Virus record (IMG/VR): IMGVR_UViG_3300028601_000033
Coordinates: 3,219-67,218 of that record
Strand: one strand, 5' to 3'
DNA from: a virus
DNA length: 64,000 nucleotides
Shown: in pieces, positions 4,608 to 50,131 of the stretch
Layout of the letters: the number at the start of each line of letters is the position of its first letter
Position numbering within the stretch: position 1 is the first letter of the stretch
Notes under the pieces: model-generated
What the model was told of the DNA's origin: nothing
The model's input: only the letters and a program-made list of their open reading frames with translations
The model's database searches: none
Translations under genes and position numbers: made by a program

Positions 4608-4640
4608 GAACCCGTTAAATTAACCTAAGAGCTGTACCCC
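4608..4640 (+). promoter_or_regulatory. conserved phage motif copy 1 (putative phage RNAP promoter) upstream of packaging genes
   Basis: GAACCCGTTAAATTAACC+TAAGAGCTGTACCCC; recurs at 20701, 42692, 50114. Confidence 0.75.
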
Positions 4641-4966
4641 TGAGTTACCTAGAATATCCTTTATTTAGGTAGTATTTATTAATATATTTAAATATAAGTA
4701 TATATAAGGATATAGATATAGATATCTATGTAGACCTCCTCTCTAGGGACTTTAGAAGAACCACTTCGAATGGCAGGGCTTCTAAGCAAATTGCCGGATA
4801 CTTCAACCTGAATGATACATTGAGGGAGTACCACAAAACGATTACTCCGAAGTTGTATTCTTGGGGGAGAATATCATTGAGCTTTGAATGAGCTATGAGA
4901 GGGCGACCCAAGAGGTCGTAACCCCTCGAGATTTTAAACTTATGTGTCCAGAAAGGATGCTCTATT

Positions 4967-5425
4967 ATGGGTAAGTTGAAAGTACCTGAGCAACCAGGTA
5001 TGCGCCAAGGAATGACCAAACCGGAAAGACTTCATAGAGGTTCAATTAGAAGTCAAAAGAGATTAAATGCATTAAAGTTTGACCCTATAGGGGAGCTAGT
5101 AAAGCAATATCGTAATCTAGAAGAGGTAGTTGCTTTCTGGGTAAGAATAAGAGATGGTGTTCAAGTAGAACTGACCCAAAAGGGTCGTGTCAAAGCTTAT
5201 AATGCCAAAGCTCATATGGATGCTCATAACGCTCTCATTAATATAGGGGAAAAGTTACTTAGATATAATTATGGTCGTGTTCCTGAAGTTAATGAGGTTC
5301 AGATTACACAACCTACACCTATGTTTGTTCAGTTAACAGATCAGTGTACAGATGTTGTTACCATAAACCCTCCTATTCCCATTGAGTTTGATGTGGATAA
5401 AGATGACGACGAAGAGGACTTCTAA
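4967..5425 (+). CDS. probable terminase small subunit
   Basis: First gene after the motif, upstream of TerL; helical FDPI..L pattern, acidic tail. Confidence 0.5.
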   Translation: MGKLKVPEQPGMRQGMTKPERLHRGSIRSQKRLNALKFDPIGELVKQYRNLEEVVAFWVRIRDGVQVELTQKGRVKAYNAKAHMDAHNALINIGEKLLRYNYGRVPEVNEVQITQPTPMFVQLTDQCTDVVTINPPIPIEFDVDKDDDEEDF

Positions 5426-5650
5426 ATGGATATCTCTAAGAAGATTTGTGACGCTACAGATGAAGAATTGTTGATGGCTTTAATGAAGAGGAATGAACTC
5501 CATGTGGCACCTGCAAGGACAGAACGCTTTGGACTTCATTATGCATCTATTGTAGGGATAGGAAACGATCATACTGCTTTTATTACTGTGTATTGCGAAG
5601 ACTTAGCCAAACTTAAAGAGATCACTAAGGAGTTTCATTTCGATGACTGA
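5426..5650 (+). CDS. hypothetical protein (paralog of 5924-6109)
   Basis: TDEELL..L..RN.L..AP shared with 5924-6109. Confidence 0.6.
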   Translation: MDISKKICDATDEELLMALMKRNELHVAPARTERFGLHYASIVGIGNDHTAFITVYCEDLAKLKEITKEFHFDD

Positions 5651-5816
5651 AGAATACAATCTAGGTAAAACAGCTTATGAAGCTTATTGTGTTTCCGTAG
5701 GTGGTGTAAGTGCTGTATCAGGCGCTCCCCTTCCTTTGTTTCATAAAACAACTAAATCGATCCAAGAAGGTTGGATTGCCGCCGCTAATGCAGTCAAGAA
5801 AGTGTGCAATGAGTGA
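5643..5816 (+). CDS. small hypothetical protein (57 aa, below ORF-track cutoff)
   Basis: AAGGAG RBS; MTEEYNLGKTAYEAYCVSVGG...LP...IQEGWIAAA. Confidence 0.55.
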   Translation: MTEEYNLGKTAYEAYCVSVGGVSAVSGAPLPLFHKTTKSIQEGWIAAANAVKKVCNE

Positions 5817-5923
5817 ACTTCTGATCAGACAAGTTGAGAATGGATATGATATCAATAACCCTGTGTCTTTAGGTAGTTTCATTGCTAATTGGGCAGCCAA
5901 TAAAAGCAAAGAAAGGTCTAATA

Positions 5924-6109
5924 ATGGAGAAAAATGAAGACTTAAAGGACTTCACAGATGAGGAATTGCTTAAAGAACTTCTTTGTAGAAACAAGCTTGT
6001 TACTGCTCCAAATAAGCCGGTATTGTGTCTTATCAATATTAGTGAGAACTTCTCTTCTGTCATCCATATTAACCCGCATGCTTTTAGGGCTTTGAGAGAG
6101 TTAACATGA
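5924..6109 (+). CDS. hypothetical protein (paralog of 5426-5650)
   Basis: DFTDEELLKELLCRNKLVTAP; ATGA overlap with terL. Confidence 0.6.
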   Translation: MEKNEDLKDFTDEELLKELLCRNKLVTAPNKPVLCLINISENFSSVIHINPHAFRALRELT

Positions 6110-7455
6110 GCATATTACTCCATCCGGGACAATCTACGGTTTTTCGAGCAATGTTCATAGAGCGTCTTTATCGATTTATTGTGGTATGCTGCTCTCGTGG
6201 TTGGGGCAAATCCTATATGGCTGCTGTTGCTGCATGTACCGCTTTATACGAACTATTTGAACTTGACGAAAGTGTCCCGAATAAGGTGGTGTATATTATT
6301 GCTCCAACATATGATCAGGTAACAGAGATTTACTACCCTCTACTTGCCTATGACTTAGGTCTAGAGAGTATCGCATTAAAGTCCTCTAGAGACTTAGGTA
6401 GATTTGTGTTTCCAGGTCGTGTAGAACTCAGACTTGTTTCCTATGAAGCTGTAGAACGATTGCGTGGTAAAGGTGCTTACTTTGTAGTATGGGATGAGGT
6501 TACATCTTGTAAGAAAGGTATCTCAGCAAAGAAGGCATGGCAGGGTGTTATCCAACCCTGTATAATCACGCGTTGGTCTGAACAGAATGCTAAAAGGTTT
6601 GATGCTAAGAACCCAGGTAGGGGACTTATTATTAGTACACCTAAGGGTTATGACTTTTTTCATGAATTATATAGTCTGAGAGAATTAAACCCTCTCTGGG
6701 GTAGTTATCATTATGACTATACGCAGTCACCATATCTTGATATCAATGAGATTGAATCAATCAAGAATGACCTTGACCCTATCGAGTTCGCCTCAGAGTA
6801 TCTAGCTTCCTTCAAGGAGTCTGGTAATAGTGTCTTTTATATGTTCGATAGAGATAGACATGTAACCTCTCAGATACCTGATTTCGTCACTTCTAAGAAA
6901 AGTAATGATCTCGGTGAAGATGTCCATGCATGTATTGACTTTAACGTTGGTCTCCAGTGTACTTCTCTATTTGCCCTTAGGGGTGGTCAGGCACAATTCA
7001 TCGATGAGATAAAGGGACATCCTGATACGGAATCCTTAGCTAAAGATCTTAGAAACCGTTTTAAGAATCATCGTATATTTGCTTATCCTGACCCTTCAGG
7101 TAAAGCCAGAAAAACATCTGCACCAGTAGGTGTTACCGACTTTAGTATCTTAAAGTCACAAGGTATTCAAGTGAATGCCAGAAAGAAAGCACCACCAATT
7201 GTTGATAGTGTAGCTGCTGTCAATCGAATGTTGGTTAATGCAAATAATAACACAAATCTATATATTCATCCCAGATGTAAAGGCTTGATATTGTCCTTAG
7301 AGAGAACCAAATGGGTGGATGGAAACCCAAATACAGCTACTATTGATAAATCAGAGAACCTTGAACACTTCTCTGATGGCATTAGATATGGTCTCGAATA
7401 TTTATTTCCTATTCAATCACATACTACACCCGTTAAACGTGGATTTAATTTCTAA
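6106..7455 (+). CDS. terL: terminase large subunit
   Basis: Walker A-like SRGWGKS, Walker B VVWDE, ISTPKG motif, nuclease motifs IDFN, YPDPSG and HFSDG. Confidence 0.95.
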   Translation: MSILLHPGQSTVFRAMFIERLYRFIVVCCSRGWGKSYMAAVAACTALYELFELDESVPNKVVYIIAPTYDQVTEIYYPLLAYDLGLESIALKSSRDLGRFVFPGRVELRLVSYEAVERLRGKGAYFVVWDEVTSCKKGISAKKAWQGVIQPCIITRWSEQNAKRFDAKNPGRGLIISTPKGYDFFHELYSLRELNPLWGSYHYDYTQSPYLDINEIESIKNDLDPIEFASEYLASFKESGNSVFYMFDRDRHVTSQIPDFVTSKKSNDLGEDVHACIDFNVGLQCTSLFALRGGQAQFIDEIKGHPDTESLAKDLRNRFKNHRIFAYPDPSGKARKTSAPVGVTDFSILKSQGIQVNARKKAPPIVDSVAAVNRMLVNANNNTNLYIHPRCKGLILSLERTKWVDGNPNTATIDKSENLEHFSDGIRYGLEYLFPIQSHTTPVKRGFNF

Positions 7456-7466
7456 AGGACAATTCA

Positions 7467-7904: not shown

Positions 7905-7914
7905 GGAGGATTCC

Positions 7915-11222: not shown

Positions 11223-11234
11223 AGGAGTAATAGA

Positions 11235-12374: not shown

Positions 12375-12389
12375 GTATAGTGTATAAAA

Positions 12390-13194: not shown

Positions 13195-13195
13195 T

Positions 13196-13819: not shown

Positions 13820-13831
13820 AGGAACGAAGTA

Positions 13832-14429: not shown

Positions 14430-14432
14430 TAA

Positions 14433-20696: not shown

Positions 20697-20700
20697 GTTT

Positions 20701-20718
20701 GAACCCGTTGAATTAACC
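20701..20718 (+). promoter_or_regulatory. conserved phage motif copy 2 upstream of scaffold/capsid genes
   Basis: GAACCCGTTGAATTAACC. Confidence 0.75.
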
Positions 20719-20824
20719 TATATTATGATAACATGAGGGGTTTTTAACTCTTCATAATAAATTTTCTAACTAATGGTATGATTGTATCATGCCTAATTGA
20801 GTTGTACTCAAGAAAGTTAATAGA

Positions 20825-21508
20825 ATGCCTGATACAAATGAAAACAATCAGAATGGTGGCGATACTAATAAACAAACTAACGATAATGGTACCACTAATA
20901 ATGGATCCAATGATAATAGTGGGCCCGAAGATATCGCCGCTAAAGTGAAGGCTGCTGTAGAAGCAGAACTCAAAGACATCAAAGAAAAGCTTAACAATGC
21001 CTATAGTGCCCGTGACACTGCATTGAACAAGGTTGCTGAATTTGAACAGAAAGAACGTGACCGTGAAGTTGAGAGGCTTAAGGCTGAAGGTAAACTTCAA
21101 GAAGCCCATGAGTTGGCTATGTCGGAACTCAAGGCTCAAAAAGCAGCACTGGAGCAACGTAATGTTGAACTTTCGAGAAACATAGACGTTCGCAGTGTTC
21201 TGACAAAATTCGAATTTCGCAATTCTAATGCACAAGAAATGGCTTTCCGTGAGATTGTACCAAATTTGGTAAAATCTGACACTGGTGTTTGGGTTCACAA
21301 AGATGGTACTAGCCTTGAAACCTATGTAACGAAGTTTATGGAAGATGATGCAAACTCATTCTTGCTTAAACCTAAAGTTAATACAGGTGGTGGTACTACC
21401 AATAACTCGAATGGTACCTCTTCGATAGCGGGTAAATCCTTGTTTGATATGAGTCAAGCAGAGGTTCTAAAACTCGCCGAAGCAGGTAAACTCCCTAAAC
21501 GTAAATAA
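20825..21508 (+). CDS. capsid scaffolding protein
   Basis: Low-complexity N-terminus, long coiled coil, GGG tail, directly before MCP. Confidence 0.8.
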   Translation: MPDTNENNQNGGDTNKQTNDNGTTNNGSNDNSGPEDIAAKVKAAVEAELKDIKEKLNNAYSARDTALNKVAEFEQKERDREVERLKAEGKLQEAHELAMSELKAQKAALEQRNVELSRNIDVRSVLTKFEFRNSNAQEMAFREIVPNLVKSDTGVWVHKDGTSLETYVTKFMEDDANSFLLKPKVNTGGGTTNNSNGTSSIAGKSLFDMSQAEVLKLAEAGKLPKRK

Positions 21509-24558: not shown

Positions 24559-24635
24559 GCTCTTATAGCTTTAATTGGAAGAGCGACTGACTTGTAATCA
24601 GTAGGTTGTAGGTTCGAGTCCTACTAAGAGCTCCA
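24559..24635 (+). tRNA. tRNA-Thr(UGU)
   Basis: Acceptor GCTCTTA/TAAGAGC, anticodon arm CTGA-CTTGTAA-TCAG, T-loop GGTTCGAGTCC, encoded CCA. Confidence 0.95.
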
Positions 24636-38200: not shown

Positions 38201-41200
38201 AGCTAACGTACTTTATTCAGAGACTGTGGGAAGGAATACAGTTTTTGAATTTACGTTTGCGAAGAATCTCAGTCTATCAAATGGTCCTATACGGGAGTTT
38301 GATATCTTAGTCCATTCAGTAGATACTGATGGAGATGTAGGTACAGGTGTTCAGATATCACCTGTAAATTATCAAGCGACTCAGGTAAGTGGGTTGGGTG
38401 CACATGTCTCATTTGGTACCGCTGAACTTTATTGGAACCCTGTATCTGAAGTGGCCTTGAAAGGCTATGAGGTACATGTTTCTCAGACTGCTGACTTCAC
38501 GCCTTCCTCAGAAACCCTTTATGCAACAGTAGGTAGTGATAGTAATACATTACCTATAAATGTAACTTCTGATGGTACCTATTACTTTAAAGTAGGTGCA
38601 TACGATGCATTAGGCAAAGACAGTATAAGCTACTCAATTGCTTTTGAATTTACCATTGATACAACTTCATCTGCTACAAATGCTGTTGATTTTGCTAAAG
38701 GCTTCAGTAAGGCATACACAGTGCCTGTTTTGGAAGGCGAGGCTTTTTCAGTTGATGCTGGAACTCTTTCTTGGAATGAACATTCTATTTGGTATGAAGG
38801 TGTTGAATTTGTAATAGCAGCAGGCGCTACTACTGATGCCTACGTATATTGGAGTAAGGATACTTCTCCAAATACTTATCAGCACGTCGATGATAAGTCA
38901 GTCTTTGAGGGAATTCTAGACCCTGTAAATCATGTGTGGCAAATTGCTACAAACTGGGGTACTAGCTTTGAATTAGCTTGGAATGCCCAAGCAAATGCTG
39001 CTATAGGTACAGCTGTAATCGGTAAAGCTTCTGTCGAAAATGAAAATATCGGTAATCTTATCCAAAGTAATAATTTTAGTCTTGTTGCAGGAGAATCTTG
39101 TACAGGATGGAGAATTACAAAGGATGGTAAAATAATCGGTACCGATATTGAGATATATGCACCTGACGGAACATTGCTTATTGATGGTGCATTTAATCTA
39201 GATGCATCTGCACCTTTTTGGTCTAATATCCAAGATGATGGAAACAAACCAGATGATAAGGCAGATGTCACCTCAGAGAACATTTCAGCAGATACAGCCA
39301 GGGTTGCCGGAGTTGTTTCTTCGACTCTTGTAGCCGACACCACAGAGATAATCTCACGTGTAGATCAAATGGCAGATGATGGTGTAATTACATCACTAGA
39401 TAAAGCATCTTTGAGGGCTCAGTGGGAGACTGTTTCATCTGAATACTCTGATATCATTAATTATGCTATCTTGAATGGTGTAACAGCTGAAGAATCTGTA
39501 TATCAAGATTTTAACTTAGCTTATTTAAAGTTACAATCATACCTTATTTCTATTGGTGTATGGTCTGATCCTGATACTGCCTATGTGCTCACAGACGATA
39601 CTTTTGATACTTTAACAAATGCATACACAGTTGCTCTTGAAAACATTATTAATGCCTCCGCTGAAGAAATAGCGGCACAGATTCAAGAGGCACGTGATGC
39701 ATACTCTGAAGCCCAAGCATTACTTGCTGAAACTACCGCTAAAGCGTATGCGGATGGTATAGTTACAACGGCTGAACAATCCGCTATAACAACAGCGCAA
39801 GCTTATGCAGATGCTGCTGATGTGGCCCTTCAGACAATTCTTCAAGCATACTCAGATGGTGTTGCAACAGATGCTGAGACAGCTGCCATAGCTGCAGCAG
39901 AAGCTTATGCGGATGCTAGAAAGATTGAAGCACTGGCATATGCAGATGGTGTAGCAGATGCTGCAGAGGTAGCCGCTATAGCTGCTGCAGAGGCTTATGC
40001 AGATCTCAAGAAAACTGAGGCTAATGCCTACGCAGATGGTATTGTTTCAGATGAAGAAGCCAGGGCAATTGCAGATGCTCAAGCAAAGGCAGATGCCGCC
40101 GAAGCAGCGGCAAAAGCCTATGTAGATGCTAATTTTGTAGATGCCACTACATATGGTACTGATATTGCTCAAATTCAATCACAAATAGATGGCAGTATTA
40201 CAACTTGGTTTTATGATGGTCTTCCTACATTGGTTAATCTTCCGGCTAGTAATTGGACTACAACTGAGCTAAAAGATCAACATCTTGGTGATTTGTATTA
40301 TGATACTTTGAACGGTCATGCTTATCGCTTTAAAGTCGTTGATTCAATATATAGTTGGGGTATTATTACAGACTCCGACATCGCTACTGCTTTAGCTACT
40401 GCTCAAAGTGCACAAGATGTGGCTGACTCTAAGAGACGTGTTTTTGTGGCTACACCTATCACTCCGTATGATGTAGGAGACCTTTGGGATACTGGTACAG
40501 ATATTAAACGGTGTACCGTCGCTAAAACCTCGGTACAAGCTTATGAGGCTACTGATTGGTCTTCTATACAGACCGCTGATGCTACAACTAAAGCGGATAC
40601 CGCCGAATCTAATGCAAATTCCTATACAGAAGGTTGGAGTGAGCAAGGTGCAGATGTTACCGGTGCTAATATAGCTGCTTCTGTTGTTAATCAAGGTGCT
40701 TTGGCAACCGTGGATGAAATTAATGAATCAAATTTCGCTACTTATATTAAGTATCTTAATGCAGATGCTATTGCGGTAGGTACTCTTGGTACAGATGTAA
40801 GATCTGAGACAGGTACACCTGGCACATATAGTTTACTATCGCAAGGCGATTTAGTGTTCTATAAGAATTACGAAGCATATAAGTACCTTAAACAAATACT
40901 GACAGGTCAAGCTACAAGCAATAATGAGGTTACTCTTCAAAATCTTGATAGGATTCCAAAAGTACTAGTGTCTTTAAGTAGCTTACGAGCCTATGATGCA
41001 AACTATGCTAATCAAAATCAACGATGGGAAGTATATCATGAGGGTGTTATTGACAATGGGGATGGAACTTACTCATTCACACCTAAATGTATGCTTACAT
41101 TAGATAGTGGTGCTGCTACTTCGCCTTTATCAGATTATTATCAGGGTGCTTCAAACTATACCACAGGTGTAAATACAACCCCTGCAAATACTACGAAGAT

Positions 41201-42047
41201 TTCTATAAATGGTTCAATAAATAGTATTCGTGGTACCGGTACTGTCCCTAATTATTACTATAGAAAAGCTACAGTTACGCTTTATTATAGACCGGATGGT
41301 TCTTCAGATCCATATGATTCGGTTTCTACTGTAATTACAAACGGTAATGATTTGACAGTCGATACCTTGTTTATTGAAACAGGGACTCTTACTAGTGATA
41401 CCTATGACTATTATTTAAGTATAGTATGGGCTGATGCCGGTGGTACTTTTGAAGCTGGCGGTACGTCTTATGAGGAAGGGCCGACGGTAGAAAGATCTAA
41501 TTTGTCACTATTTGCGGAAGCTTATGCAAATGCTTACTCCTCAAGTACTGTTCAAGTGAATGCTTCTGATGAAGAGTTCATGACACTAGCATCCTATACT
41601 CCAGCTTCACCTTATGAGATATATCGTGTTGTATATAGCTTCGAATTAGCCTGGAAACTGTATTGCTTTCACTATCAATCTACAGCCAAGGTATCTCTAC
41701 CTACAGGTACTCAGTTAGATTACCTCTCAGCATCTGGTACGGATGAAAATGAGTCATATAATGATAATGCATCGACCTATCCTGACTATCGGTCTCATTC
41801 TTTTGAGAAGACAAGCTATTTAACCTCTATCGGTTATAAAGCTGAAGCTTCTGCAAAATTCTCAAATGTAAGTAGCCAAGCTAAGATCAGAGCACGAAAT
41901 TTGTATGCCACTATTTACACTCGTAAGCTTGCCTCTAATAATAGTACTGCTGTGAATACAGTAAACTTGGCAAATGCTTCTTTTGTATTGTCAAGTGCGC
42001 AGGTACTAGACAATGCGGGGGTAGTTAACTGGATTGCAATAGCATAA
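35271..42047 (+). CDS. central tail fibre / tip attachment protein (gpJ-like) with FN3-like and coiled-coil segments
   Basis: LPLVYGR, SNNPAWCLLDYL, LEPGD.I motifs; FN3-like W...GY...Y.F.V.A repeats; AYAD repeats. Confidence 0.85.
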   Translation: MGSVVGFVIQMIIVAASVAYQIQQARKAKKKAEEAADARKGYEIPIEGEPSNLPLVYGRAKIGGVRVFHNSKNKFKYTESNADKVLQAGPHERQSGTFTTFEWDYDSATYDSLGVRRPTIKTVEHVYSGSDGGLLSRDLGGKRHSFLFVQQALCQGPIHNCYDVVIDESRSLKDDDIGTYEDNFRHPKAAFRIDIHNNGGVADAIAAINFTERGKATFDDMAYASMVVRLDRDDPQFNAVPDVQFLIEGKLVRTVTGGILSTEFAYSNNPAWCLLDYLMDNISGKGVPVSELDLASFEAAAAVCDTIVQENAAVGGWFYQPFDGTRFITQRNIPLYECNLIVDTAKPIRENVEAILATMGDARLVWSSGKYKLSLQYPSSNEVIENIIELTDDDLCLDQDIEISWPSASDRLNFCTIKYHNECEEFKEDSVSWPPKYNKTYFEGVGGSYYRLQTGSWGDTVLGQFKESFGVWDGDNDATLSYQFVVPKENVGTCVLEYGGDITSITITDVDAQEKVTKNNVTNYSSAPTTAEVNLGDVVTDKVYQIDIVIHNVKTDPEKKCAAAAISQGGMYIWTTREPNYDSFIVKNLDDTVYSAMLEEDSYIEMETEIFAEGITDYYHALAKAEETVRTSRSAFTIKFKYVLRDKYLEPGDFIKLVSSRIGIGSPENPLYIKVNSVKADEDKTCEVKGERFDYTQLAWNIADDEYIRPRSLYQSFISRPQNLVYSTDSINIYNSSGKLTWDPVSDETIAGYIIYAHLAGDPRETDTNLPLFTEIGRTTEPFFILPALEAPSAIFAVQAYSDSGAKSKMQYTSETTATLLPNFWDRSLVLTVDTNQFKEVTPGNITPETITVNAISNGFVSPEITWYVDDVLQEGENGTSLVLSSFTDTTFKTIKVQYIENTIAYSAAVDIFYSSIPYMNVGVENLKVQNSTGDGVTFVDRDCILEWDEPTGIWENLDWLKHYLVEVYAKDAEKISANVLYSETVGRNTVFEFTFAKNLSLSNGPIREFDILVHSVDTDGDVGTGVQISPVNYQATQVSGLGAHVSFGTAELYWNPVSEVALKGYEVHVSQTADFTPSSETLYATVGSDSNTLPINVTSDGTYYFKVGAYDALGKDSISYSIAFEFTIDTTSSATNAVDFAKGFSKAYTVPVLEGEAFSVDAGTLSWNEHSIWYEGVEFVIAAGATTDAYVYWSKDTSPNTYQHVDDKSVFEGILDPVNHVWQIATNWGTSFELAWNAQANAAIGTAVIGKASVENENIGNLIQSNNFSLVAGESCTGWRITKDGKIIGTDIEIYAPDGTLLIDGAFNLDASAPFWSNIQDDGNKPDDKADVTSENISADTARVAGVVSSTLVADTTEIISRVDQMADDGVITSLDKASLRAQWETVSSEYSDIINYAILNGVTAEESVYQDFNLAYLKLQSYLISIGVWSDPDTAYVLTDDTFDTLTNAYTVALENIINASAEEIAAQIQEARDAYSEAQALLAETTAKAYADGIVTTAEQSAITTAQAYADAADVALQTILQAYSDGVATDAETAAIAAAEAYADARKIEALAYADGVADAAEVAAIAAAEAYADLKKTEANAYADGIVSDEEARAIADAQAKADAAEAAAKAYVDANFVDATTYGTDIAQIQSQIDGSITTWFYDGLPTLVNLPASNWTTTELKDQHLGDLYYDTLNGHAYRFKVVDSIYSWGIITDSDIATALATAQSAQDVADSKRRVFVATPITPYDVGDLWDTGTDIKRCTVAKTSVQAYEATDWSSIQTADATTKADTAESNANSYTEGWSEQGADVTGANIAASVVNQGALATVDEINESNFATYIKYLNADAIAVGTLGTDVRSETGTPGTYSLLSQGDLVFYKNYEAYKYLKQILTGQATSNNEVTLQNLDRIPKVLVSLSSLRAYDANYANQNQRWEVYHEGVIDNGDGTYSFTPKCMLTLDSGAATSPLSDYYQGASNYTTGVNTTPANTTKISINGSINSIRGTGTVPNYYYRKATVTLYYRPDGSSDPYDSVSTVITNGNDLTVDTLFIETGTLTSDTYDYYLSIVWADAGGTFEAGGTSYEEGPTVERSNLSLFAEAYANAYSSSTVQVNASDEEFMTLASYTPASPYEIYRVVYSFELAWKLYCFHYQSTAKVSLPTGTQLDYLSASGTDENESYNDNASTYPDYRSHSFEKTSYLTSIGYKAEASAKFSNVSSQAKIRARNLYATIYTRKLASNNSTAVNTVNLANASFVLSSAQVLDNAGVVNWIAIA
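39740..40130 (+). repeat. Ala-rich AYAD coding repeats
   Basis: A(Y/K)AD recurring at alternating 18- and 11-residue spacing. Confidence 0.7.
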
Positions 42048-42055
42048 GGGTAAAT

Positions 42056-42514
42056 ATGTTTATAATTCGAAAAATACGTAATAATCAAGAGCTTCGTAAA
42101 TGTCTTGAAATTTCTCATTCTAATTTCGACATGTATGCCCCTGAAGGATTTATTGTAGATAATATTAAATGTGCAAATAATATAATGACCCTGTCAAGAC
42201 GTGTTAAATATTTTCGTGTCTTGGAATATAAAGGTGAAATATGCGCATGGATCCTGGCTGATATTACAGAGCCGATGCCTTATAGCTCTACTCGAGCTCT
42301 TGGTCAGATTCTATATCACAGTGGATTAAAAGGGATTGTCGCCGTTAAAGCCTTAGTCGCTATCCATGAAGATATGTATCAGTTTGCTAAGCGTCATAAA
42401 ATTCCTGTAGTGACAACCTCTAGTGTATTGCCTAATCGGGATTTATTTGAACGTATTCTCCTTAAAGAAGGCTGGAAATCTAACCCCTATTTCATTTATC
42501 GACTCACGAATTGA
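42056..42514 (+). CDS. GNAT-fold-like protein
   Basis: V.EYKGEI.AWI...A.R......RIL.K.GW pattern of phage GNAT-like proteins. Confidence 0.45.
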   Translation: MFIIRKIRNNQELRKCLEISHSNFDMYAPEGFIVDNIKCANNIMTLSRRVKYFRVLEYKGEICAWILADITEPMPYSSTRALGQILYHSGLKGIVAVKALVAIHEDMYQFAKRHKIPVVTTSSVLPNRDLFERILLKEGWKSNPYFIYRLTN

Positions 42515-42555
42515 GCAACTTCAACCGCCAGAAATGGCGAAATTTGAGCCGTGTT

Positions 42556-42584
42556 GGGTGGTGGTGGAGCGTTCACCACCACCC
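42556..42584. repeat. GC-rich hairpin after the tail module
   Basis: GGGTGGTGGTGGA-GCG-TTCACCACCACCC. Confidence 0.6.
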
Positions 42585-42691
42585 GCAAGGTATCACCCAC
42601 GGTCTCAGGGGTGGCAGTTCTCAGGGCGAATTTAACTCCTGTATTTCCTTATTGGAGATGATACTATCAGAATCCTTTGAATTTCAACGCG

Positions 42692-42725
42692 GAACCCGTT
42701 AAATTAACCCTAGAGCTGTCCCCCC
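42692..42725 (+). promoter_or_regulatory. conserved phage motif copy 3 upstream of lysis genes
   Basis: GAACCCGTTAAATTAACC+CTAGAGCTGTCCCCC, near-identical to 4608-4640. Confidence 0.75.
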
Positions 42726-42806
42726 TATTATCCCTTTAATACTAAGGTATAGTTAGTAAATAGTAAGTAAATAATAAGTAAATATATCAATAATAGGAGT
42801 ATAAAA

Positions 42807-43349
42807 ATGTTACCTGCACTTTTAATGCCTTTAATGGCTAAAGGCTTAGACTTGATCGGAAATGCTGTCTTAGCTAAGGGTAAAGATTGGGTGAAAAATA
42901 AGACAGGTGTAGACTTGGATAAAGAACGCCTCTCGGATGAGGATTATCTTAAACTCAAACAATATGAGATGGAACATGAAGAAGAGCTTATTCGCCTTAG
43001 ACAGGAAGATGATCGACTTGTTAAAGCTGTTCAAGAGATGTATCTCCAAGATACACAATCAGCTAGGAACATGCAAAACGAAGCACTTAACCAGGAGGAC
43101 AAATTCTCTAAGCGTTTCGTTTACCTGTTTGCTTGTGTGTGGTCTCTTGCTGCTATTTTCTATATGGCATCTATTACGTTTTGTACTATTCCTGATGCTA
43201 ACATTCGGTTTGCTGATACTATTCTCGGTTTCCTTCTTGGCACTATTGTGTCACAAATTATTGCGTTCTTTTATGGGTCTAGTAAGTCGTCCCAAAGTAA
43301 AGATGAAATAAAAGATCATATACTACGTAATTTAACGAAAGGCAGCTAA
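42807..43349 (+). CDS. holin-like membrane protein
   Basis: D.QSAR.MQ, two C-terminal TM helices, FFYGSS motif; next to endolysin. Confidence 0.7.
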   Translation: MLPALLMPLMAKGLDLIGNAVLAKGKDWVKNKTGVDLDKERLSDEDYLKLKQYEMEHEEELIRLRQEDDRLVKAVQEMYLQDTQSARNMQNEALNQEDKFSKRFVYLFACVWSLAAIFYMASITFCTIPDANIRFADTILGFLLGTIVSQIIAFFYGSSKSSQSKDEIKDHILRNLTKGS

Positions 43350-43350
43350 C

Positions 43351-43677
43351 ATGACTCTCGGACAACATCAGGAAGCTTTTGCAAAAGATTTAGTGGAACT
43401 TTTGCTTTATGCCTATAAACTAGGGTATAAGGTTAGAATAGGCGAAGTTCAACGTACTGTGGAACAGCAAAAGATCTACGTGAAAACAGGCAGATCTACT
43501 ACTATGAATAGTATGCATATTCATAAGTGTGCCGCTGACCTTCATTTCACGAAAGATGGTATCCTCTGTTACCCTGAAGAACTAGGTGTATATTGGGAAG
43601 CTCTTGATCAATTGAACTCCTGGGGTGGTCATTGGCGCTCCTTCAAAGATAAACCTCATTTTCAACGTAAAGTATAA
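43351..43677 (+). CDS. endolysin, M15-family peptidase
   Basis: RT.EQQ, SMH....AADL, WGG.W..F.DKPHFQ. Confidence 0.85.
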   Translation: MTLGQHQEAFAKDLVELLLYAYKLGYKVRIGEVQRTVEQQKIYVKTGRSTTMNSMHIHKCAADLHFTKDGILCYPEELGVYWEALDQLNSWGGHWRSFKDKPHFQRKV

Positions 43678-43682
43678 CCAAA

Positions 43683-43702
43683 AGTCCCTCTTCGGAGGGA
43701 CT
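43683..43702 (+). terminator. hairpin with UUCG loop ending the lysis module
   Basis: AGTCCCTC-TTCG-GAGGGACT flanked by A-runs. Confidence 0.65.
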
Positions 43703-43772
43703 AAAAAATGCGGAAAATATGGTATCTTATATGGAAGCAAGAAAATAACCAACCCACACATTGGAGGTAATT

Positions 43773-43955
43773 ATGTTTTCCTGTACTGGTACCGTTAAAA
43801 ATGGTGTTGTTATTGCTGATGGTTTTGTTGATAAGGTTGTTTTGTATCCTTCTAACTTTTCTCAACGTCGGTCCTTAGAAGAACTTCCTGATGGTACCGT
43901 CGTACATGTCCAAGCTGATTCGAAGTACAATATAATTGACTTTGATGAAGCTTAG
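43773..43955 (+). CDS. small early-region protein
   Basis: GGAGG RBS before ATG 43773; high-expression codons. Confidence 0.6.
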   Translation: MFSCTGTVKNGVVIADGFVDKVVLYPSNFSQRRSLEELPDGTVVHVQADSKYNIIDFDEA

Positions 43956-43971
43956 TAAGTTTAATTAACAG

Positions 43972-43998
43972 GGGAGGTTTCGGCCTCCCTCTAATTTT
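43972..43998 (+). terminator. hairpin with UUCG loop
   Basis: GGGAGGT-TTCG-GCCTCCC followed by TCTAATTTT. Confidence 0.55.
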
Positions 43999-44121
43999 CG
44001 GAGATAATATGTTATCTAAGTTTAAACTATTAGATGAATTAAAATTATCACTTTTAAAACAAGACATTGATGCTACATTTCAGACTTTATCAAAAATTCA
44101 AACATTAACAGGAGCTCTCTC

Positions 44122-44334
44122 ATGACAACGACGACACGATCAAGAATGATTATGGGTACTTTAGGTGTAATTATCGTATTTCTTTTTGTATCTTTAATCT
44201 CTGTATCAAATTTATATTTTAAAAAAGTAGCTGAGTATAATAAACTAAAAACAATTACACAAGATGCAATGCTTACTGCACAAGAATGTGTTGATGCTTT
44301 ACAAACTTGTCATAGTAATAAATACTGGAGATAA
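44122..44334 (+). CDS. small single-TM protein
   Basis: AGGAG RBS; N-terminal hydrophobic helix. Confidence 0.55.
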   Translation: MTTTTRSRMIMGTLGVIIVFLFVSLISVSNLYFKKVAEYNKLKTITQDAMLTAQECVDALQTCHSNKYWR

Positions 44335-44336
44335 AT

Positions 44337-44606
44337 ATGAAAAACCAATATCGACTTCATGATAGTACTAAAAGAGTATTTTCTGATAGTATATTTACAG
44401 TGATAAAAGCTTTTAAAACGATACGTAAAGCCATTAAGCAAAATAATATTACAGCAGATGAATATAATATGATATTAAAAGAAATCGAGGAAATTCTTAC
44501 ATCTCTTAAGGATCTCAGTACGTGTCTTCCTCACAAGATTATTAGAAGTCCCAAACATAACTATATATCAAAGTTAATCCTTAATATCACTAACTTCTTT
44601 AACTGA
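44337..44606 (+). CDS. hypothetical protein
   Basis: GGAG RBS, 89 aa. Confidence 0.5.
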   Translation: MKNQYRLHDSTKRVFSDSIFTVIKAFKTIRKAIKQNNITADEYNMILKEIEEILTSLKDLSTCLPHKIIRSPKHNYISKLILNITNFFN

Positions 44607-44625
44607 TTAAATAAGGGAGGTTGTC

Positions 44626-45099
44626 TTGAAAGAATCACATGTTGTCCTTTATAGTGTCTTAATACTGATTTTAATCTTGGTAGGTACTGGTAGGAACTCT
44701 CAAAAAGATAAGGTGGAACTAGATAACAGGCAAATTAATCGTCTAACACGATATGATATGCTGTTTAAAGACATCTTACCTAAATGGGACATCGAAAAAC
44801 CGCTCTTTTATAAAGAAGTAGATATAACAGTGTACACAAGTCAAAAAGAAGAAACAGATGATACACCTTATATAACAGCAAATATGAGTAAGGTAAAACC
44901 TGGAGGTATGGCAGTCAGTCGAGATTTACTTGAAGTCCTAGGGGGTTATGGAAAGAGAGTTGTCGTAAAAGGCTATGGAATCTTTGTCATAAATGATACC
45001 ATGAATAAAAGATTTACTAACTCGATAGATATCTGGGGAGGGGACTTAAAGGCCGCTTTAAATCATGGTAGACAGAAGGGAACCATTATATGGCAATGA
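44626..45099 (+). CDS. membrane-anchored 3D (Asp-Asp-Asp) domain peptidoglycan hydrolase-like protein
   Basis: T.YT..ETDDTPYITA, AVSRDL, NDTM..RF...IDIW. Confidence 0.8.
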   Translation: MKESHVVLYSVLILILILVGTGRNSQKDKVELDNRQINRLTRYDMLFKDILPKWDIEKPLFYKEVDITVYTSQKEETDDTPYITANMSKVKPGGMAVSRDLLEVLGGYGKRVVVKGYGIFVINDTMNKRFTNSIDIWGGDLKAALNHGRQKGTIIWQ

Positions 45100-45278
45100 A
45101 TACTTTAGAAGACGAGCTCGAGAATTTAGTTACAGAATACCTCGAAAATGATGACTTCAATAGTGCCGGCTATACTTTTGGCTTAAGCCTCAAGGACAAG
45201 TGTCCTAATCTTACGATGGAACAATTTCAAGAATTCATAAATGGATTGAAAGAAGCCAAAGTATTTCCGGAGGATTGA
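45090..45278 (+). CDS. hypothetical protein
   Basis: Small ORF overlapping the upstream stop. Confidence 0.5.
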   Translation: MAMNTLEDELENLVTEYLENDDFNSAGYTFGLSLKDKCPNLTMEQFQEFINGLKEAKVFPED

Positions 45279-45444
45279 TGCATCACCCTTATTGTGATTG
45301 TGACGAATGTATGGAAAAATTTTATGAAGAAGTAAAGAGAAAGGAGGCAAATAAGGATGCAATAAAAGAACTAGATCGATTGCGTAAAATACTTGATGAA
45401 CACGGAATTTCATACTAACAATAAATCTTAAACAACGGCTTATA

Positions 45445-45696
45445 ATGGAGATTATTATGTTTGCAGAATTACTTAAAAGAAGTCTTATGGCGGGATTCAT
45501 CTTTGGCGTTATTGGTTTCATTATAGTAATTGCCACGGCGCCTTCTTTTTTAGGTGTATTATGGATCACAGCAGGTTCATTTATGGTAGTTGTAGGATGG
45601 GTTGCCATCGGTATTGTTCTTTCAATAATTCTTAACATCTCTAAAGGAAGATTCTTTAAGAAATCTCCTAATGTGGTTGAGTTGAATGAAGAATAA
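45445..45696 (+). CDS. two-TM membrane protein
   Basis: Two hydrophobic helices; similar layout to 45801-46016. Confidence 0.55.
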   Translation: MEIIMFAELLKRSLMAGFIFGVIGFIIVIATAPSFLGVLWITAGSFMVVVGWVAIGIVLSIILNISKGRFFKKSPNVVELNEE

Positions 45697-45800
45697 AACC
45701 CTCATGTGGCATCTGAAATATCTTCTTGTTCTGTTCGCAATTAGTTATACTGTATGATTGTGGACGCAGTTCTTTACGAAACGGAATGTAAAAGGAGATA

Positions 45801-46016
45801 ATGATATTTATGAATCACATCTTTAAGCTGGCCATTAGGCGTTCTTTTACTGCATTCTCGGTTATACTTTTGCTCGCTGTCTTAGGTGCTCCCCAACTGT
45901 TTGGGAGTATAATCTTAACTTCATCCATCATAGCAACTGTATTCTTTTACAGTCTTTTATCATCGGCTATAATTACAACATATACTTATTTTAAAGAAAA
46001 ACATAAATCAAATTAG
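45801..46016 (+). CDS. two-TM membrane protein
   Basis: AAGGAG RBS; two hydrophobic helices. Confidence 0.55.
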   Translation: MIFMNHIFKLAIRRSFTAFSVILLLAVLGAPQLFGSIILTSSIIATVFFYSLLSSAIITTYTYFKEKHKSN

Positions 46017-46236
46017 TTAAGTTATACCTTAGGAGAGCCATTATGAAAGATTTTATTATAAATGTCTTAGTCATAATGGCTCTCCTCTGTCTTTTCACAC
46101 CTTTTCCGTGCAGTATTTGTTGCATTGTTTCTTTAGTATTATGTACAACACGAAAGAGGTGTTAAGTGATTGTTATTGTAATCTGGTCTGTCATTTTATT
46201 TGTATTTAGCAAATTAGTGCGAAAGTAGGAGTATAG

Positions 46237-47832
46237 ATGCGTGCAAGATTAATTGAATCAATCGCACAAAGACTCAAAGAAGAAATCGCACCTCAAAACC
46301 CTATCAAGTTTCTTAAGAAATTCGAGGTAGATGAATATATCGATGATGTAATATCTACAGTGTATTTGTATACAAGAGCTAAAAAGGGAAGTTCACACAA
46401 TACAATATATTTCGTAGAAGTAGCATCAGCTATAGGGCATTCTGTCAGGAATAAATTGAAGCAAAAAAGAAATTCATCTGTTGCTGTCAAAGCAGGCTCC
46501 TTCCTCTTGTATTCCTTTGAAATCCTGCAAATACTTCAAGTTGTATTAGGTCAGGGTAAAAATCATCACGCAAGTTACATTGTCCAGATGTTGGATGATG
46601 ACTGCTTACATGATTTGTGGAATAACATAGATACAGCCACAAATGAAAAATTACCCTCATTAAAACCTTATGCACCTTGGAACTCCTCTAAGCATGAAAC
46701 CGGTATATCAATTGTAAAAACCAAAAATAAAGATGTGTTAAGTATACTACATCCAGATACTCATCCATTAATATTTAATAGTTTGAATAAGTCTCAAGCT
46801 GTAGGTTGGAGAATAAATGAAGATATCTTTAACATTCACTTGTGGGCACTTCGTAACAAAACCAAAGCCTTCTCTGAAATTTGGGATTCTCAAAACCCCG
46901 AGGCTAAAACAACTAAACTGCGAGAAGCTAAAGCGATAGGTTCAATTGCTCAAAGATTTCTCAAATCTAAATTTTACCATCTGTACTATTATGATTTCAG
47001 AGGTCGTAAATACACATCAACAGCATATCTACATGAACAGGGTTCAGACCTAGCTAGAGGTTTATTACTGCGTGATGATTGCAAGCCAATCGGACCTGAG
47101 GGGTTCTTTTGCCTAATGGTGAGTATTGCTTCAAACTGGGCAGGTGATGCAGGCAGAGAAGACGGTGCAAAGACAGATAAAATACCACTGAAAGAACGAT
47201 ATTTATGGGCAATGGATAATGAAGAAATTTTATTATCCTATGCTGAATCACCGAAAATCCATCAAGGTTGGATGGACGCAGATAAGCCATGGCAATTCCT
47301 GGCTGCATGTATGGAACTAAAGAAGCTGCGAGAATGGCAATTTAAGAAAGGTGATCCAATGAATCCTTTCGAAGATTATTCTTATAAAAGTCATCTTGAG
47401 GCTTATATTGATGGGTCGAATAATGGTTCCCAACATCTGACAGCCTTAACAAGAGACGAGGTAACTGCACCTCACGTTAATCTTGTACCGCAATCACTCC
47501 CAGGTGATTTGTATAAATATATTGCAGATCATGTTTGGGAACGGTTGAATGAAACATATTCAAAACTATCAGCCACAGAAATCCAAGAGTGTAATCTATT
47601 CATTGACAAACTTGTCGATCTTAAGACAAAAATACATAACGAACCATCTGGAAGTGAGTTGCGACAAGCCCTTGTCGATGAGATTAAAATCTTAAAAGAA
47701 CAAAGTAGCCACCTAGGAGATAAACCATCAGTAGTCTTTTGGATGAAAATTGTAGATGCTAAACATAAGAGAAAAGTGGTTAAGCGTAATGTTATGACAC
47801 TCCCATATGGTGGAACTGCATATGGCTTGGGT
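46237..47832 (+). CDS. T7-like single-subunit RNA polymerase, exon 1
   Basis: DFRGRKY, DKPWQFLA, motif A IDGSNNGSQH, motif B RKVVKRNVMTLPYG. Confidence 0.92.
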
Positions 47833-48624
47833 TAATTCGGCTCAAGTAAAACTCCTCTAATTGCTGGGACATCCCTCTGGGACAATCAGCAGCGAAGCTA
47901 TACCGCCAATTAGTGTTTATCAAAGGAATATCGAAATGCCTTTTCAGAAATTTACTTTTATAGATTCTCCATCTAACATGAGTACCCGCACAATGCCTAA
48001 ATCAGGCGATTTGATCAGAAACCAACAAAATACCGGTAACTTCATCAACATCATACTTAGTGTATCATCACCTCGGAATGATGATAAGGGTATATTTGTG
48101 TATATTCGGAGTGTTAGATTTGCCAAATATAATGCTAGAGGAAAAACACCTATTACTTACCTAAAAGGCACACGATCTAGAAGTTTTAAATTTTATGTTT
48201 CAGTACCACAACAATCACATTGGCACCTAACTCGCTGTAATTGGCAATTGGTCAAACTACAAAAAGCAGTAGCTTTCAAAGAACAACGACTTTATGAGGT
48301 TATAGTTGAAGATGGTAAAGAAATTGCACGACATATAAGAACAGTCCGAAGGCCTTATGGGTTTGTAGATGTAGATAACCTAGATCAACGTATGCAAATT
48401 GTGGAAGCGTTAAAAGATGTAGATACGACATACAAGGCGCCTGAAGGCGTAAATTAATCATACACTTGGCGGTGTAGAACGTTCAACGACTATCCGTAAG
48501 GAGTACTAGGCAAGTGCCTGGGAAATGGGGAGACACTTAGGTGTAAGATATAGTCTGGTCTATATGGTAACATATAGCTGGTTTCATACCGGGGTAGAAG
48601 TAACGATTCTATCTGAACATAACG
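47833..48624 (+). mobile_element. group I intron (IA2-like) in the RNAP gene
   Basis: P1 CTTGGGT/GCTCAAG with U.G at the splice site; AATTGCTGGG/AATCAGCAG, GTTCAACGACTA, AAGATATAGTC; terminal G 48624; splicing restores YGLG|QQQI in frame. Confidence 0.92.
47936..48457 (+). CDS. intron-encoded protein of unknown family (173 aa, basic)
   Basis: AAGGA RBS; looped out of P6 (ACCGCCAA...TTGGCGGT); no GIY-YIG, HNH or LAGLIDADG motif visible. Confidence 0.7.
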   Translation: MPFQKFTFIDSPSNMSTRTMPKSGDLIRNQQNTGNFINIILSVSSPRNDDKGIFVYIRSVRFAKYNARGKTPITYLKGTRSRSFKFYVSVPQQSHWHLTRCNWQLVKLQKAVAFKEQRLYEVIVEDGKEIARHIRTVRRPYGFVDVDNLDQRMQIVEALKDVDTTYKAPEGVN

Positions 48625-49278
48625 CAGCAACAAATCAATGATGCAAAGAAACATGGTATAGATCTATTGCTTTACATGGAACATAAGTGGGGTGCATTTC
48701 TAGGAAGAGAAGTCTTTGAAGACTGTCGCATATCTTTAAAGAGACCTATGCAGTTATTGTCAATCTTTGAACAAGCAGGTAAACAAGCAGAGATTGATGG
48801 CAGGTTCTTATCTTGGATTGTACCGGTCACAGATTTTCCAGTTGTACAAAATTATGTAGAAGGAAAGATTAAGAAAGTATATGTGCAATATGGTCCTCCA
48901 AGGGGAAAAAGAAATAGTTCTGGTTATTATGACAACACACTTCAGCTCAATGTATGTTTCATCGAAGACCCGATTCCTTCCAAAAGAAAACAAGCTCAAG
49001 GAGCCAGTCCAAATGCAATCCACAGTTTAGATGCAGCGCACTTAACGATGATTGTTAATGCTTGTGATTTTCCAGTAACAACCATTCATGATTCGTTTGG
49101 ATGTTTACTAGCAGATATGCCTGTATTATTCAGGATTGTACGTGAAACATTTGTTGAGTTGTACAAGCACGACCCTTTAACGCAAATAATGAAGTACATT
49201 GGAGGTGATATCAGCGATGTAAAGTTAGGAACATTGGACTTATCTTTAGTATTAGATTCAGAATTCTGTTTTTGTTAA
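48625..49278 (+). CDS. T7-like single-subunit RNA polymerase, exon 2
   Basis: W..P...FPVVQ.Y, SPNAIHSLDAAHL, motif C IHDSF. Confidence 0.92.
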   Translation, partial: QQQINDAKKHGIDLLLYMEHKWGAFLGREVFEDCRISLKRPMQLLSIFEQAGKQAEIDGRFLSWIVPVTDFPVVQNYVEGKIKKVYVQYGPPRGKRNSSGYYDNTLQLNVCFIEDPIPSKRKQAQGASPNAIHSLDAAHLTMIVNACDFPVTTIHDSFGCLLADMPVLFRIVRETFVELYKHDPLTQIMKYIGGDISDVKLGTLDLSLVLDSEFCFC

Positions 49279-49489
49279 GGAGTAACAATGGAATGTTGTG
49301 ACTTAGTAGTCATCACTTGTTCATGTTTCACCAATGATAGTAACTACAAAAGCTGGTCCTGGAAACTTTAACACGTATATTGGAGTGAAATGCTCCGATA
49401 TCTGTCTTATCTGACATCAACGGCGTTACATTTACTGTTGTCACTGTAATACACAATAGAGGCACGAGTGGTTGCCAAAGAGGTATAAT

Positions 49490-49891
49490 ATGAAGCAATT
49501 TAGGACTTTTACAGAGGTTAAGAGTAACGTACCTTCTGATTTAGAATCGGAAATTGAAGATATAGTAAACAAGTTTCGCCGCCAAGAAGATATTGCAGGG
49601 GAGTTCGACTTTGAAGAATATTTTGGAGGTTGTGTGTTCTTGGTGGAGGAACTTTCTGATTTAAAGGAAATTCTAACACATGTCGTAAATATTGAAAGCA
49701 ATGAATGGGACAATTTGTTAAATACGCATTCAAGCTTTGATATTGCGGAATATGTTTGTAATGGAAATTATGCTTTCATCTTTGACATAACTAATAACTC
49801 TGGTGGCCCTTCTTACTACATACCCCGCGCAATTGCAGACCAATGCGATCATGTCGCAATGGCTATTGACCTGTCTGAACCCCTAAGCTAA
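49490..49891 (+). CDS. hypothetical protein
   Basis: GAGG RBS before ATG 49490. Confidence 0.6.
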   Translation: MKQFRTFTEVKSNVPSDLESEIEDIVNKFRRQEDIAGEFDFEEYFGGCVFLVEELSDLKEILTHVVNIESNEWDNLLNTHSSFDIAEYVCNGNYAFIFDITNNSGGPSYYIPRAIADQCDHVAMAIDLSEPLS

Positions 49892-49901
49892 GGAAATTAT
49901 T

Positions 49902-50104
49902 ATGTTGATTACACGTACTTCCATATTTTCTGGTAAAGAACATTCTATGGAAATCAATGTAACAAAGGCACAACTTGAAGCATGGTATAGTGGTACATTG
50001 ATTCAAAAGCCATGCCTAACCTGACAGATGATGAGCGTGAATTTATAAAAACCGGTATTACGGCAGAAGAATGGCGTGATAACTTTAATGCTACAGAAGA
50101 ATGA
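49902..50104 (+). pseudogene. small conserved-looking phage gene with a 1-nt frameshift
   Basis: MLITRTS...GTLIQ continues as AMPNLTDDEREFIKTGIT.EEW only after a shift at ATTCAAAAGCC (50001-50011). Confidence 0.55.
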
Positions 50105-50113
50105 CCTTTATTT

Positions 50114-50131
50114 CAACCCGTTGAATTAACC
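50114..50131 (+). promoter_or_regulatory. conserved phage motif copy 4 upstream of the replication module
   Basis: CAACCCGTTGAATTAACC. Confidence 0.75.

Follow-up and report, generated by a model that had tools for sequence, protein, structure and literature searches.

Organization of the locus

The window analysed here is a stretch of 64,000 nucleotides (nt) corresponding to bases 3219-67218 of the 67,218-bp IMG/VR virus record IMGVR_UViG_3300028601_000033, whose estimated completeness is 98%. The genome is of the siphovirus type, 67 kb long, with a tape-measure gene and long tail genes, and every gene of the window is encoded on the + strand (Table 1). The subjects of this work are two single-subunit RNA polymerases (RNAPs) of the T7 type, namely RNAP1, which is fused to a MuF minor head domain (MuF-RNAP), and RNAP2, together with two intergenic motifs, a repeated 17-mer (ML) and a longer block at the head of the presumed early genes (E). 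The record itself is labelled G000 and the records of its relatives are labelled G002-G014.

A first-pass annotation of this DNA had reported the sequence AACCCGTTRAATTAACC four times, in intergenic DNA ahead of the packaging, capsid/tail, lysis and replication modules. The window scan gives exact matches at 4609-4625, 20702-20718, 42693-42709 and 50115-50131, all on the + strand, and PHROG and Pfam matches of the neighbouring genes bear out the four modules. The count of four holds for the window; the genome has five copies, the additional exact one being located at record 2181-2197, about 1 kb before the window start, so that the tally for the whole record is 5 forward and 0 reverse. An exact copy is found in 0 of 100 shuffled windows, and allowing up to three mismatches leaves the same four window sites, none of them new, with 0.40 expected. 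The ends of the four copies precede the next gene start by 342, 107, 98 and 44 nt, respectively; ML is an intergenic, coding-strand element at the heads of gene modules. As had also been stated, no ML is present between 43683 and 46237, even at three mismatches or fewer, and the first copy past RNAP2 is found 837 nt beyond the RNAP2 stop codon. A 63-residue open reading frame (ORF) at 42511-42702, overlapping ML site 3, is a mechanical call across a strong hairpin.

Table 1. Features of the window, in window coordinates; the limits of the ML sites (20 nt) follow the ML logo.
Feature	Position	Strand	Remarks
Hairpin	4469-4508	+	18-bp GC stem, -33.1 kcal/mol, then T run CCTTATTTTTTT; about 100 nt before ML site 1; terminator-like
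ML site 1	4608-4627	+	Heads packaging/head module; extension AGAGCTGT.CCCC and AT-rich leader; terminase large subunit downstream
Terminase large subunit	6106-7455	+	PHROG match
Portal	14433-16028	+	PHROG match
RNAP1 (MuF-RNAP)	16044-20696	+	1550 aa; MuF minor head domain fused to complete T7-fold RNA polymerase
ML site 2	20701-20720	+	6 nt past MuF-RNAP stop codon; heads scaffold/capsid/tail module
Scaffold	20825-21508	+	PHROG match
Major head protein	21527-22702	+	PHROG match
Hairpin	42546-42594	+	Strong GC stem, -30.7 kcal/mol; about 110 nt before ML site 3
ML site 3	42692-42711	+	Before two lysis-region genes; downstream extension as at site 1
Endolysin-like	43351-43677	+	PHROG match
Hairpin	43683-43702	+	8-bp GC stem, TTCG loop; between lysis genes and E site
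E site	43707-43736	+	AATGCGGAAAATATGGTATCTTATATGGAA; candidate early promoter heading early block; 5 nt after hairpin 43683-43702
Early block	43761-46165	+	About 10 small ORFs from E site to RNAP2; no ML inside
RNAP2 exon 1	46237-47832	+	532 codons; Pfam/PHROG matches; T7 RNAP, E 6e-22
Group I intron in RNAP2	47833-48624	+	792 nt; Rfam Intron_gpI; 198-aa ORF at 47861-48457
RNAP2 exon 2	48625-49278	+	749 aa when joined with exon 1
ML site 4	50114-50133	+	First after RNAP2; heads SSB/DNA polymerase/replication module; syntenic site before SSB gene in G002, G003, G005
gp2.5-like single-stranded DNA-binding protein (SSB)	50175-50723	+	PHROG match
DNA polymerase	51092-52963	+	PHROG match

The two polymerases

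The two divergent single-subunit RNAPs that had been proposed are real, since Pfam and PHROG matches were obtained for both, and both look complete and active. The RNAP1 gene sits between the portal and scaffold genes. Its product matches Pfam Phage_Mu_F at residues 145-250 (E 1.7e-12) and RNA_pol in the C-terminal part, and carries the DxxGR motif (DDRGR at 813), motif A (EQDASSSGAQ), motif B (RKAAKAQNMVTFYG) and motif C (IHDAF). A phmmer comparison with PDB sequences returned 0 matches; thus, a fold search was needed for the placement of the enzyme. An AlphaFold model of residues 560-1550, based on 25 homologues, has a mean predicted local distance difference test score (pLDDT) of 78.2 and a predicted template modelling score (pTM) of 0.76. 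With this model, Foldseek retrieves full-length T7 and mitochondrial RNAPs (E 3e-17 to 1e-14, 10-14% identity); an N4 entry is absent among the matches listed. Relatives of MuF-RNAP are present in at least 164 IMG/VR stretches, and the loci analysed here are the best 80 of them, 58-84% identical; in these at least 164 related contigs the MuF fusion is retained with a complete, apparently active polymerase. The MuF domain and the position of the gene, adjoining that of the portal, suggest that RNAP1 is packaged in the capsid and injected.

The second polymerase gene had been placed at 46237. A gene is indeed found there, and the ORF at this position is only the first of its two exons. The insert between them consists of exactly the 792 extra bases (47833-48624) relative to the uninterrupted RNAP2 gene of G002, which is 86% identical; the gene is uninterrupted in the relatives compared. 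At the borders, the last base of exon 1 is T, the first three bases of the insert are TAA and its last base is G. The Intron_gpI match scores 34.6 bits (E 8e-7), which is below the gathering score, and is seen only at an E-value threshold. The joined exons encode a protein 88% identical to that of G002, in which the T7 motifs A, B and C are present, as is a specificity loop that exceeds that of T7 RNAP by about 10 residues; this comparison shows that the loop exists and cannot pair bases with residues. The C-terminus is FCFC where T7 RNAP has FAFA, the FxFx pattern being kept. RNAP2 relatives in IMG/VR display 54-88% identity. In two of them the RNAP2 frame stops early, after 531 residues (G008 39598-41163) and 545 residues (G013 19479-21017), near the position of the intron in the window, a hint at introns, whether shared or independent, in the region of motif B.

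ML in related genomes

A scan of the whole genome and of its relatives, which the first-pass annotation had named as a check, has been run and extends the picture obtained in the window. Five related records contain 1, 3, 6, 7 and 7 ML copies (at three mismatches or fewer), every one of them on the coding strand, and nine further genomes have 1-7 copies each, 41 on the coding strand versus 1 on the opposite strand. The 80 MuF-RNAP loci (699,750 nt) contain 75 matches on the + strand versus 3 on the - strand, almost all of which immediately follow the MuF-RNAP stop codon, as ML 20702 does in this record. Copies on the non-coding strand are 4 of the 123 found in relatives. The sites occupy syntenic places: ahead of the SSB gene, of a conserved 195-residue gene and of the terminase module, behind MuF-RNAP, and where the tail module ends. 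These are the module heads that carry ML in the window.

The logo obtained from 78 unique sites, RAMCCCGTTAAATTAACCCW, is asymmetric, with about 20 nt conserved, and shows no conserved position further downstream. Since nothing is conserved downstream at a fixed spacing, there is no -10 box for a model in which an activator works with the host RNAP.

Some ML copies are followed by an extension, GAGCTGyCCCCC, then TATATTA and an AT-rich tract (window 4626-4660 and 42710-42745). Extended copies are present in relatives at 14182, 52934 and 77638 of G005, at 11562 and 52687 of G003 and at 13200 of G002; in the relatives they often lead a tandem pair of ML sites spaced 94-145 nt, or are located 60-175 nt before the first E.

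A second motif at the head of the early block

The E motif was detected by comparing intergenic gaps across genomes; a repeat search within the early block alone gave nothing. Its logo, built on 37 sites of 13 records, reads aWYGCGSAAAAnnnRGTATCTTATATGAWR; since the core served as the search key, independent evidence comes from the flanks only. Uninterrupted and about 28 nt long, E is conserved across genomes of 37-52% G+C. A 25-nt degenerate E pattern has 10 matches in four of five records, all on the coding strand, and 0 with the reversed control; nine further genomes contain 2-4 copies of the core each, 25 in total, again on the coding strand and with 0 in the controls. In the window taken by itself the core match is insignificant (1 found, 0.43 expected), and its weight derives from conservation and position.

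The E logo contains no -35-like element, and the conserved GCGSAAAA falls where the spacer of a sigma-70 promoter would be. Sigma-70-like sites are not enriched between 42 and 51 kb, with 27 found versus 33.2 expected. The body of E has no hairpin potential, since its folding energy at 35 sites is -2.61 versus -2.51 for shuffles (p 0.39). Judged by these features of its sequence, E would be a phage-specific signal rather than a sigma-70 promoter.

An E-like sequence, GCGAGCAAAACGTATTTTATATG, with one core mismatch, is located inside the DNA polymerase gene (window 52451-52475, record 55669-55693) and is probably due to chance.

Arrangement of E, RNAP2 and ML

Fourteen records have both E and RNAP2 (G000, G002-G014). 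In all 14 at least one E is found upstream of RNAP2, and there is no ML from the nearest E to RNAP2. The next ML follows about 0.4-3.5 kb after RNAP2 in 11 of 13 counted records, G004 being excluded because it nearly duplicates G005; G008 and G009 have their next match about 21 kb from RNAP2, and none was found in the incomplete G014. G008 and G011 are labelled 'direct terminal repeats' in IMG/VR, and the contig breakpoints of the relatives fall in differing modules; no inference on genome ends is drawn from this.

Hairpins accompany several of these sites. A lysis terminator had been assigned to 43683, and a hairpin does exist there; on the + strand, however, it is followed by A's and not by T's, and it is likely a transcript end or a barrier. 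Since strong hairpins are found about 100 nt before two ML sites and directly before E, the layout is one of terminator followed by promoter.

Stems are also found downstream of the motifs. Behind 64 unique ML sites, the next 40 nt have a folding energy of -6.05 versus -3.43 kcal/mol for shuffles (Wilcoxon p 8e-7), and in 19 of 30 cases at or below -5 kcal/mol the stem begins 0-3 nt past ML, with stem sequences that differ from one another. The corresponding values downstream of E are -5.58 versus -2.99 (p 1e-6), with 15 of 22 strong stems beginning 0-3 nt from the core ATG; these p-values are generous, because the sites are phylogenetically related. Such variable hairpins are what 5'-terminal stem-loops of transcripts would look like, a hint at the position of the start sites. 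A listing of sequencing runs that cover window 42001-51000 shows no RNA run and a single DNA run, from a landfill metagenome, which may be the source.

Cultured and named relatives

The nearest named relatives are the roseophages DSS3_VP1 and DSS3_PM1, belonging to the Naomviridae, and EBPR siphovirus 1. DSS3_VP1 resembles this phage in the order of portal, MuF-RNAP, scaffold and capsid genes, in a free RNAP that ends the early block and in two analogous motif classes; both its polymerases are 31-35% identical to the two of the window. The commonest strand-specific repeat of DSS3_VP1, aTAG-GTKACGTTAAAGARGGG, occurs at least 9 times on the + strand, but never in the block that precedes the RNAP gene. 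The motif corresponding to ML, multi-copy and found only on the + strand (TAGGTGACGTTAAAGARGGG), shares 15 of 18 positions with TAGGTGACACTATAGAAG, which we take to be the SP6 promoter and which is found 9 times in the SP6 genome, in forward orientation only; between the variant TAGGTGACGTTAAAGAGG and TAGGTGACACTATAGAAG there are 3 differences in 18 positions. ML itself has only the CGTTAAA core in common with its DSS3_VP1 counterpart, and the latter is not palindromic. Two copies of GAAAACTAAGGCATCTATAATGA resemble E; they directly follow a terminator hairpin where the early block of DSS3_VP1 begins, upstream of its RNAP.

EBPR siphovirus 1 has a MuF-RNAP 58.5% identical to that of the window, and ML-type sites at 4427, 14131 and 31223. 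The records of DSS3_VP1, DSS3_PM1 and EBPR siphovirus 1 name the fusion only as minor head or head protein. In EBPR siphovirus 1 it is annotated as three genes (L013 25771-31144), for a head protein, an HNH endonuclease and a hypothetical protein: a mobile endonuclease cassette thus splits the fusion there, and none of the three annotations names a polymerase. In Pelagibacter phage Kolga, which has a MuF protein without RNAP, a free RNAP and 30% G+C, no clear ML- or E-like motif was found; the short-pattern scan was too loose to carry meaning, and nothing is concluded from it.

According to the title of PMC8323127, the DNA of DSS3_VP1 has deoxyuridine (dU) replacing deoxythymidine (dT). The term 'RNA polymerase' occurs 0 times in the main text of this Naomviridae paper, and likewise 0 times in PMC12669031. 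Literature searches found no paper on a MuF-RNAP fusion or on the relay proposed below, although supplementary gene tables may name these polymerases.

A proposed two-polymerase relay and its alternatives

As far as sequence can tell, ML resembles a T7-group promoter in size, asymmetry, orientation, placement and kinship, and it very probably serves a T7-type RNAP encoded by the phage itself as middle/late promoter. The first-pass annotation had envisaged a two-step transcription cascade. This idea is strengthened by the behaviour of ML as a directional, phage-specific promoter, by the RNAP2 block devoid of ML and by the E motif now found; for the assignment of the two enzymes to the two motifs we infer the following order. 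In the reading preferred here, to which a probability of about 0.58 is given, MuF-RNAP fires at E, RNAP2 is made as a consequence, and RNAP2 then reads ML. With such a relay the phage would seem to need little from the host enzyme.

The MuF-RNAP would be made late, from the operon headed by the ML at 4609, would be built into the capsid through its MuF domain and would enter the cell with the DNA. There it would start at E (43707-43736) on double-stranded DNA and transcribe the small early genes and RNAP2, from whose message the group I intron would have to be removed. RNAP2 would then start at the five ML sites and transcribe the replication, packaging, head/tail and lysis modules, together with the MuF-RNAP gene for the next generation. 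In both cases transcripts are expected to start at the 3' edge of the motif. RNAP2 is the natural candidate for reading ML because it is a T7-like enzyme, its own block has no ML before it and ML resumes behind it; MuF-RNAP is the candidate for E because it would be the only capsid-carried phage enzyme present at time zero, and the RNAP2 gene is inside the E-driven block.

Several points weigh against this relay. The link of E to MuF-RNAP is a purely logical one, and packaging of the enzyme is suggested by its MuF domain and by its place next to the portal gene. The early block is not insulated from ML: in most relatives an ML is found just before the first E, with a gap of 61-175 nt in G005, G007 and G011-G014, while here the gap is 1 kb with lysis genes in between; the block is probably also reached from ML later in infection. 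E-like sites exist outside the early block, one at record 1765-1789 and several in relatives. The GCTGyCCCCC extension and the AT-rich tract behind two ML sites fit no part of the explanation, and the ML and E sites of the window itself mostly have no downstream hairpin, the only strong one being that of ML 20702, which starts 13 nt past the motif. Finally, the sites compared come from related genomes, so that counts and p-values overstate independence.

Among the alternatives, the one that survives best, although unlikely, is that the host RNAP starts the infection, through E as an unusual host-type promoter or through other promoters; RNAP2 would read ML as in T7, and MuF-RNAP would be employed otherwise, for instance in replication priming or at a few sites. 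Such a scheme matches the plan of T7, where an RNAP gene closes the early block and the phage promoters are found only downstream; furthermore, the E core holds TATCTT/TATAT, its DSS3_VP1 version holds TATAAT, and the injection of MuF-RNAP is itself conjectural. Conversely, a contiguous block of this length, conserved over such a range of base composition, still recognisable in a roseophage, devoid of a -35-like element and with conserved bases in the would-be spacer, argues against a host-type promoter, as do the sigma-70-like sites, which are not enriched, and the persistence of a complete, apparently active polymerase fused to a head protein in so many contigs.

A very unlikely arrangement is the one with swapped roles, in which the injected MuF-RNAP would serve all ML sites and RNAP2 would serve E. 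Both enzyme-motif pairs depend on inference, and the ML copies just upstream of E in most relatives would agree with the exchange. However, the temporal order would be lost, and RNAP2 would be left re-reading only its own block. Moreover, the ML-type motif of DSS3_VP1 is SP6-like, and it is RNAP2 that matches T7 RNAP in sequence, with MuF-RNAP giving no match; ML sites are many and E sites few, which suits a few injected molecules acting on E.

Even less probable is that ML is the operator of a dimeric regulator or a hairpin promoter of the N4 kind, two options that the first-pass annotation had raised on account of the palindromic core GTTAA-A-TTAAC. Across the 78 sites the right arm is invariant and the left arm variable (e.g., 12 G and 5 T at one position); the inner pairs are non-complementary at 20 and 12 of the sites, and a change on both sides that keeps the pair is seen at only 1. 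The conserved flanks are asymmetric, the rarity of copies on the non-coding strand and the non-palindromic counterpart in DSS3_VP1 also speak against these options, and a stem of 3-5 A/T-rich pairs would be very weak. Since the left-arm changes are not compensated, the palindromic core appears incidental. Both options are disfavoured, the first by the uncompensated left arm and the asymmetric flanks and the second because neither ML nor E has a hairpin potential of the N4 kind. The least likely possibility is that ML is no transcription signal at all, being instead a replication, packaging or recombination site or a mobile intergenic cassette: the two sites with a conserved extension and AT-rich tracts do recall transcription-primed origins, but the five to seven copies that a genome carries head operons, lie 44-342 nt ahead of the start codons and behind terminator-like hairpins, and invariably have the orientation of the genes, which speaks against it.

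Comparison with N4, T7/SP6 and P23-45

The proposed relay of MuF-RNAP and RNAP2 resembles that of N4 (Schitoviridae), where, according to PMC4496689, a virion-carried T7-family RNAP is thought to start early transcription and the early genes encode a smaller second T7-family RNAP; the order is described there as virion RNAP gp50, then RNAPII, then host RNAP. Several features differ. The N4 virion RNAP has about 3500 residues and no MuF fusion, whereas the enzyme presumably carried here is a 1550-residue MuF fusion. N4 initiates early transcription at extruded DNA hairpins, for which gyrase and SSB are required, while E has no hairpin potential; N4 RNAPII is a gp15/gp16 heterodimer working with cofactors, while RNAP2 is one polypeptide after splicing; and N4 late genes use the host sigma-70 RNAP, while here ML also heads the packaging, head/tail and lysis modules. 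Thus, the design works like the N4 relay but without its hallmarks, i.e. hairpin promoters, a giant gp50-type protein, a heterodimeric RNAPII and a late hand-over to the host RNAP. N4-like virion RNAPs occur only in N4-like phages, according to PMC5512222.

RNAP2 aligns with the T7 and SP6 RNAPs (Autographiviridae) across motifs A to C and the specificity loop, and is shorter than T7 RNAP (749 versus 883 residues) with a longer loop. The promoters of this group measure 17-23 bp, and ML likewise is an asymmetric element of about 20 nt, on the coding strand, found only downstream of the RNAP gene; its sequence is unlike the T7, T3 and SP6 promoters save for short stretches. Unlike this group, the present phage has an early block with its own conserved non-sigma-70 motif, a second, capsid-linked polymerase and a siphovirus-type genome of 67 kb with tape-measure and long tail genes.

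The Thermus phage P23-45 is also long-tailed, and, as reported in PMC10770324, an RNAP fused to a structural protein transcribes its pre-early genes, including that of a second phage RNAP. The P23-45 enzymes, however, are two-barrel, cellular-type polymerases with the tape measure as fusion partner, whereas here both are T7-type and the fusion partner is a portal-associated MuF protein.

Other features of the locus

Behind the DNA polymerase gene, PHROG and Pfam matches identify an exonuclease, a primase-helicase, a ribonucleotide reductase and a ligase. The reductase gene is in two parts (56959-57990 and 58782-59774), and the insert between them contains an ORF at 58065-58703 resembling LAGLIDADG homing endonucleases; the genes of G002 and G003 are uninterrupted. 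At the Rfam gathering scores the window contains tRNA only; a tRNA-Thr (TGT) gene is located at 24559-24635, between head and tail genes.

Just before RNAP2, a 16-bp perfect inverted repeat (46031-46086) encloses the ribosome-binding site and the ATG of a 40-codon ORF, and may possibly be a control point for translation or transcription. An Rfam mir-335 match at 46028-46099 (E 0.0028) was rejected as a chance match to this repeat. In the early block of one relative, intergenic gaps contain cores resembling type III hammerhead ribozymes, CTGATGAG...CGAAAC, one at L074:15466-15520 (G005 55466-55520; Rfam E 6.3e-5, below the gathering score) and a second near G005 54940; no such core was found in this window.

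Implications for a clade of long-tailed phages

It is possible, at a little under even odds, that a large and mostly uncultured clade of long-tailed phages, comprising at least 164 IMG/VR contigs and, as distant members, the Naomviridae roseophages with their dU-DNA, completes its entire programme with no help from the host RNAP, first by MuF-RNAP acting on the plain double-stranded E and then by RNAP2 acting on ML, with composite ML-plus-E sites keeping the early block on later. The proposal is directly testable, because cultured relatives, DSS3_VP1 and DSS3_PM1, exist. If true, it would provide two new orthogonal polymerase-promoter pairs for synthetic biology, and would account for the transcription of the dU-containing DNA of the relatives. 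The system would be a simple one, with two promoter classes of about 20 and 28 nt, and widespread in environmental viromes; with its two T7-type enzymes in a siphovirus, it would represent a third design of self-sufficient phage transcription relay, after the N4 and the jumbo/crAss/P23-45 types.

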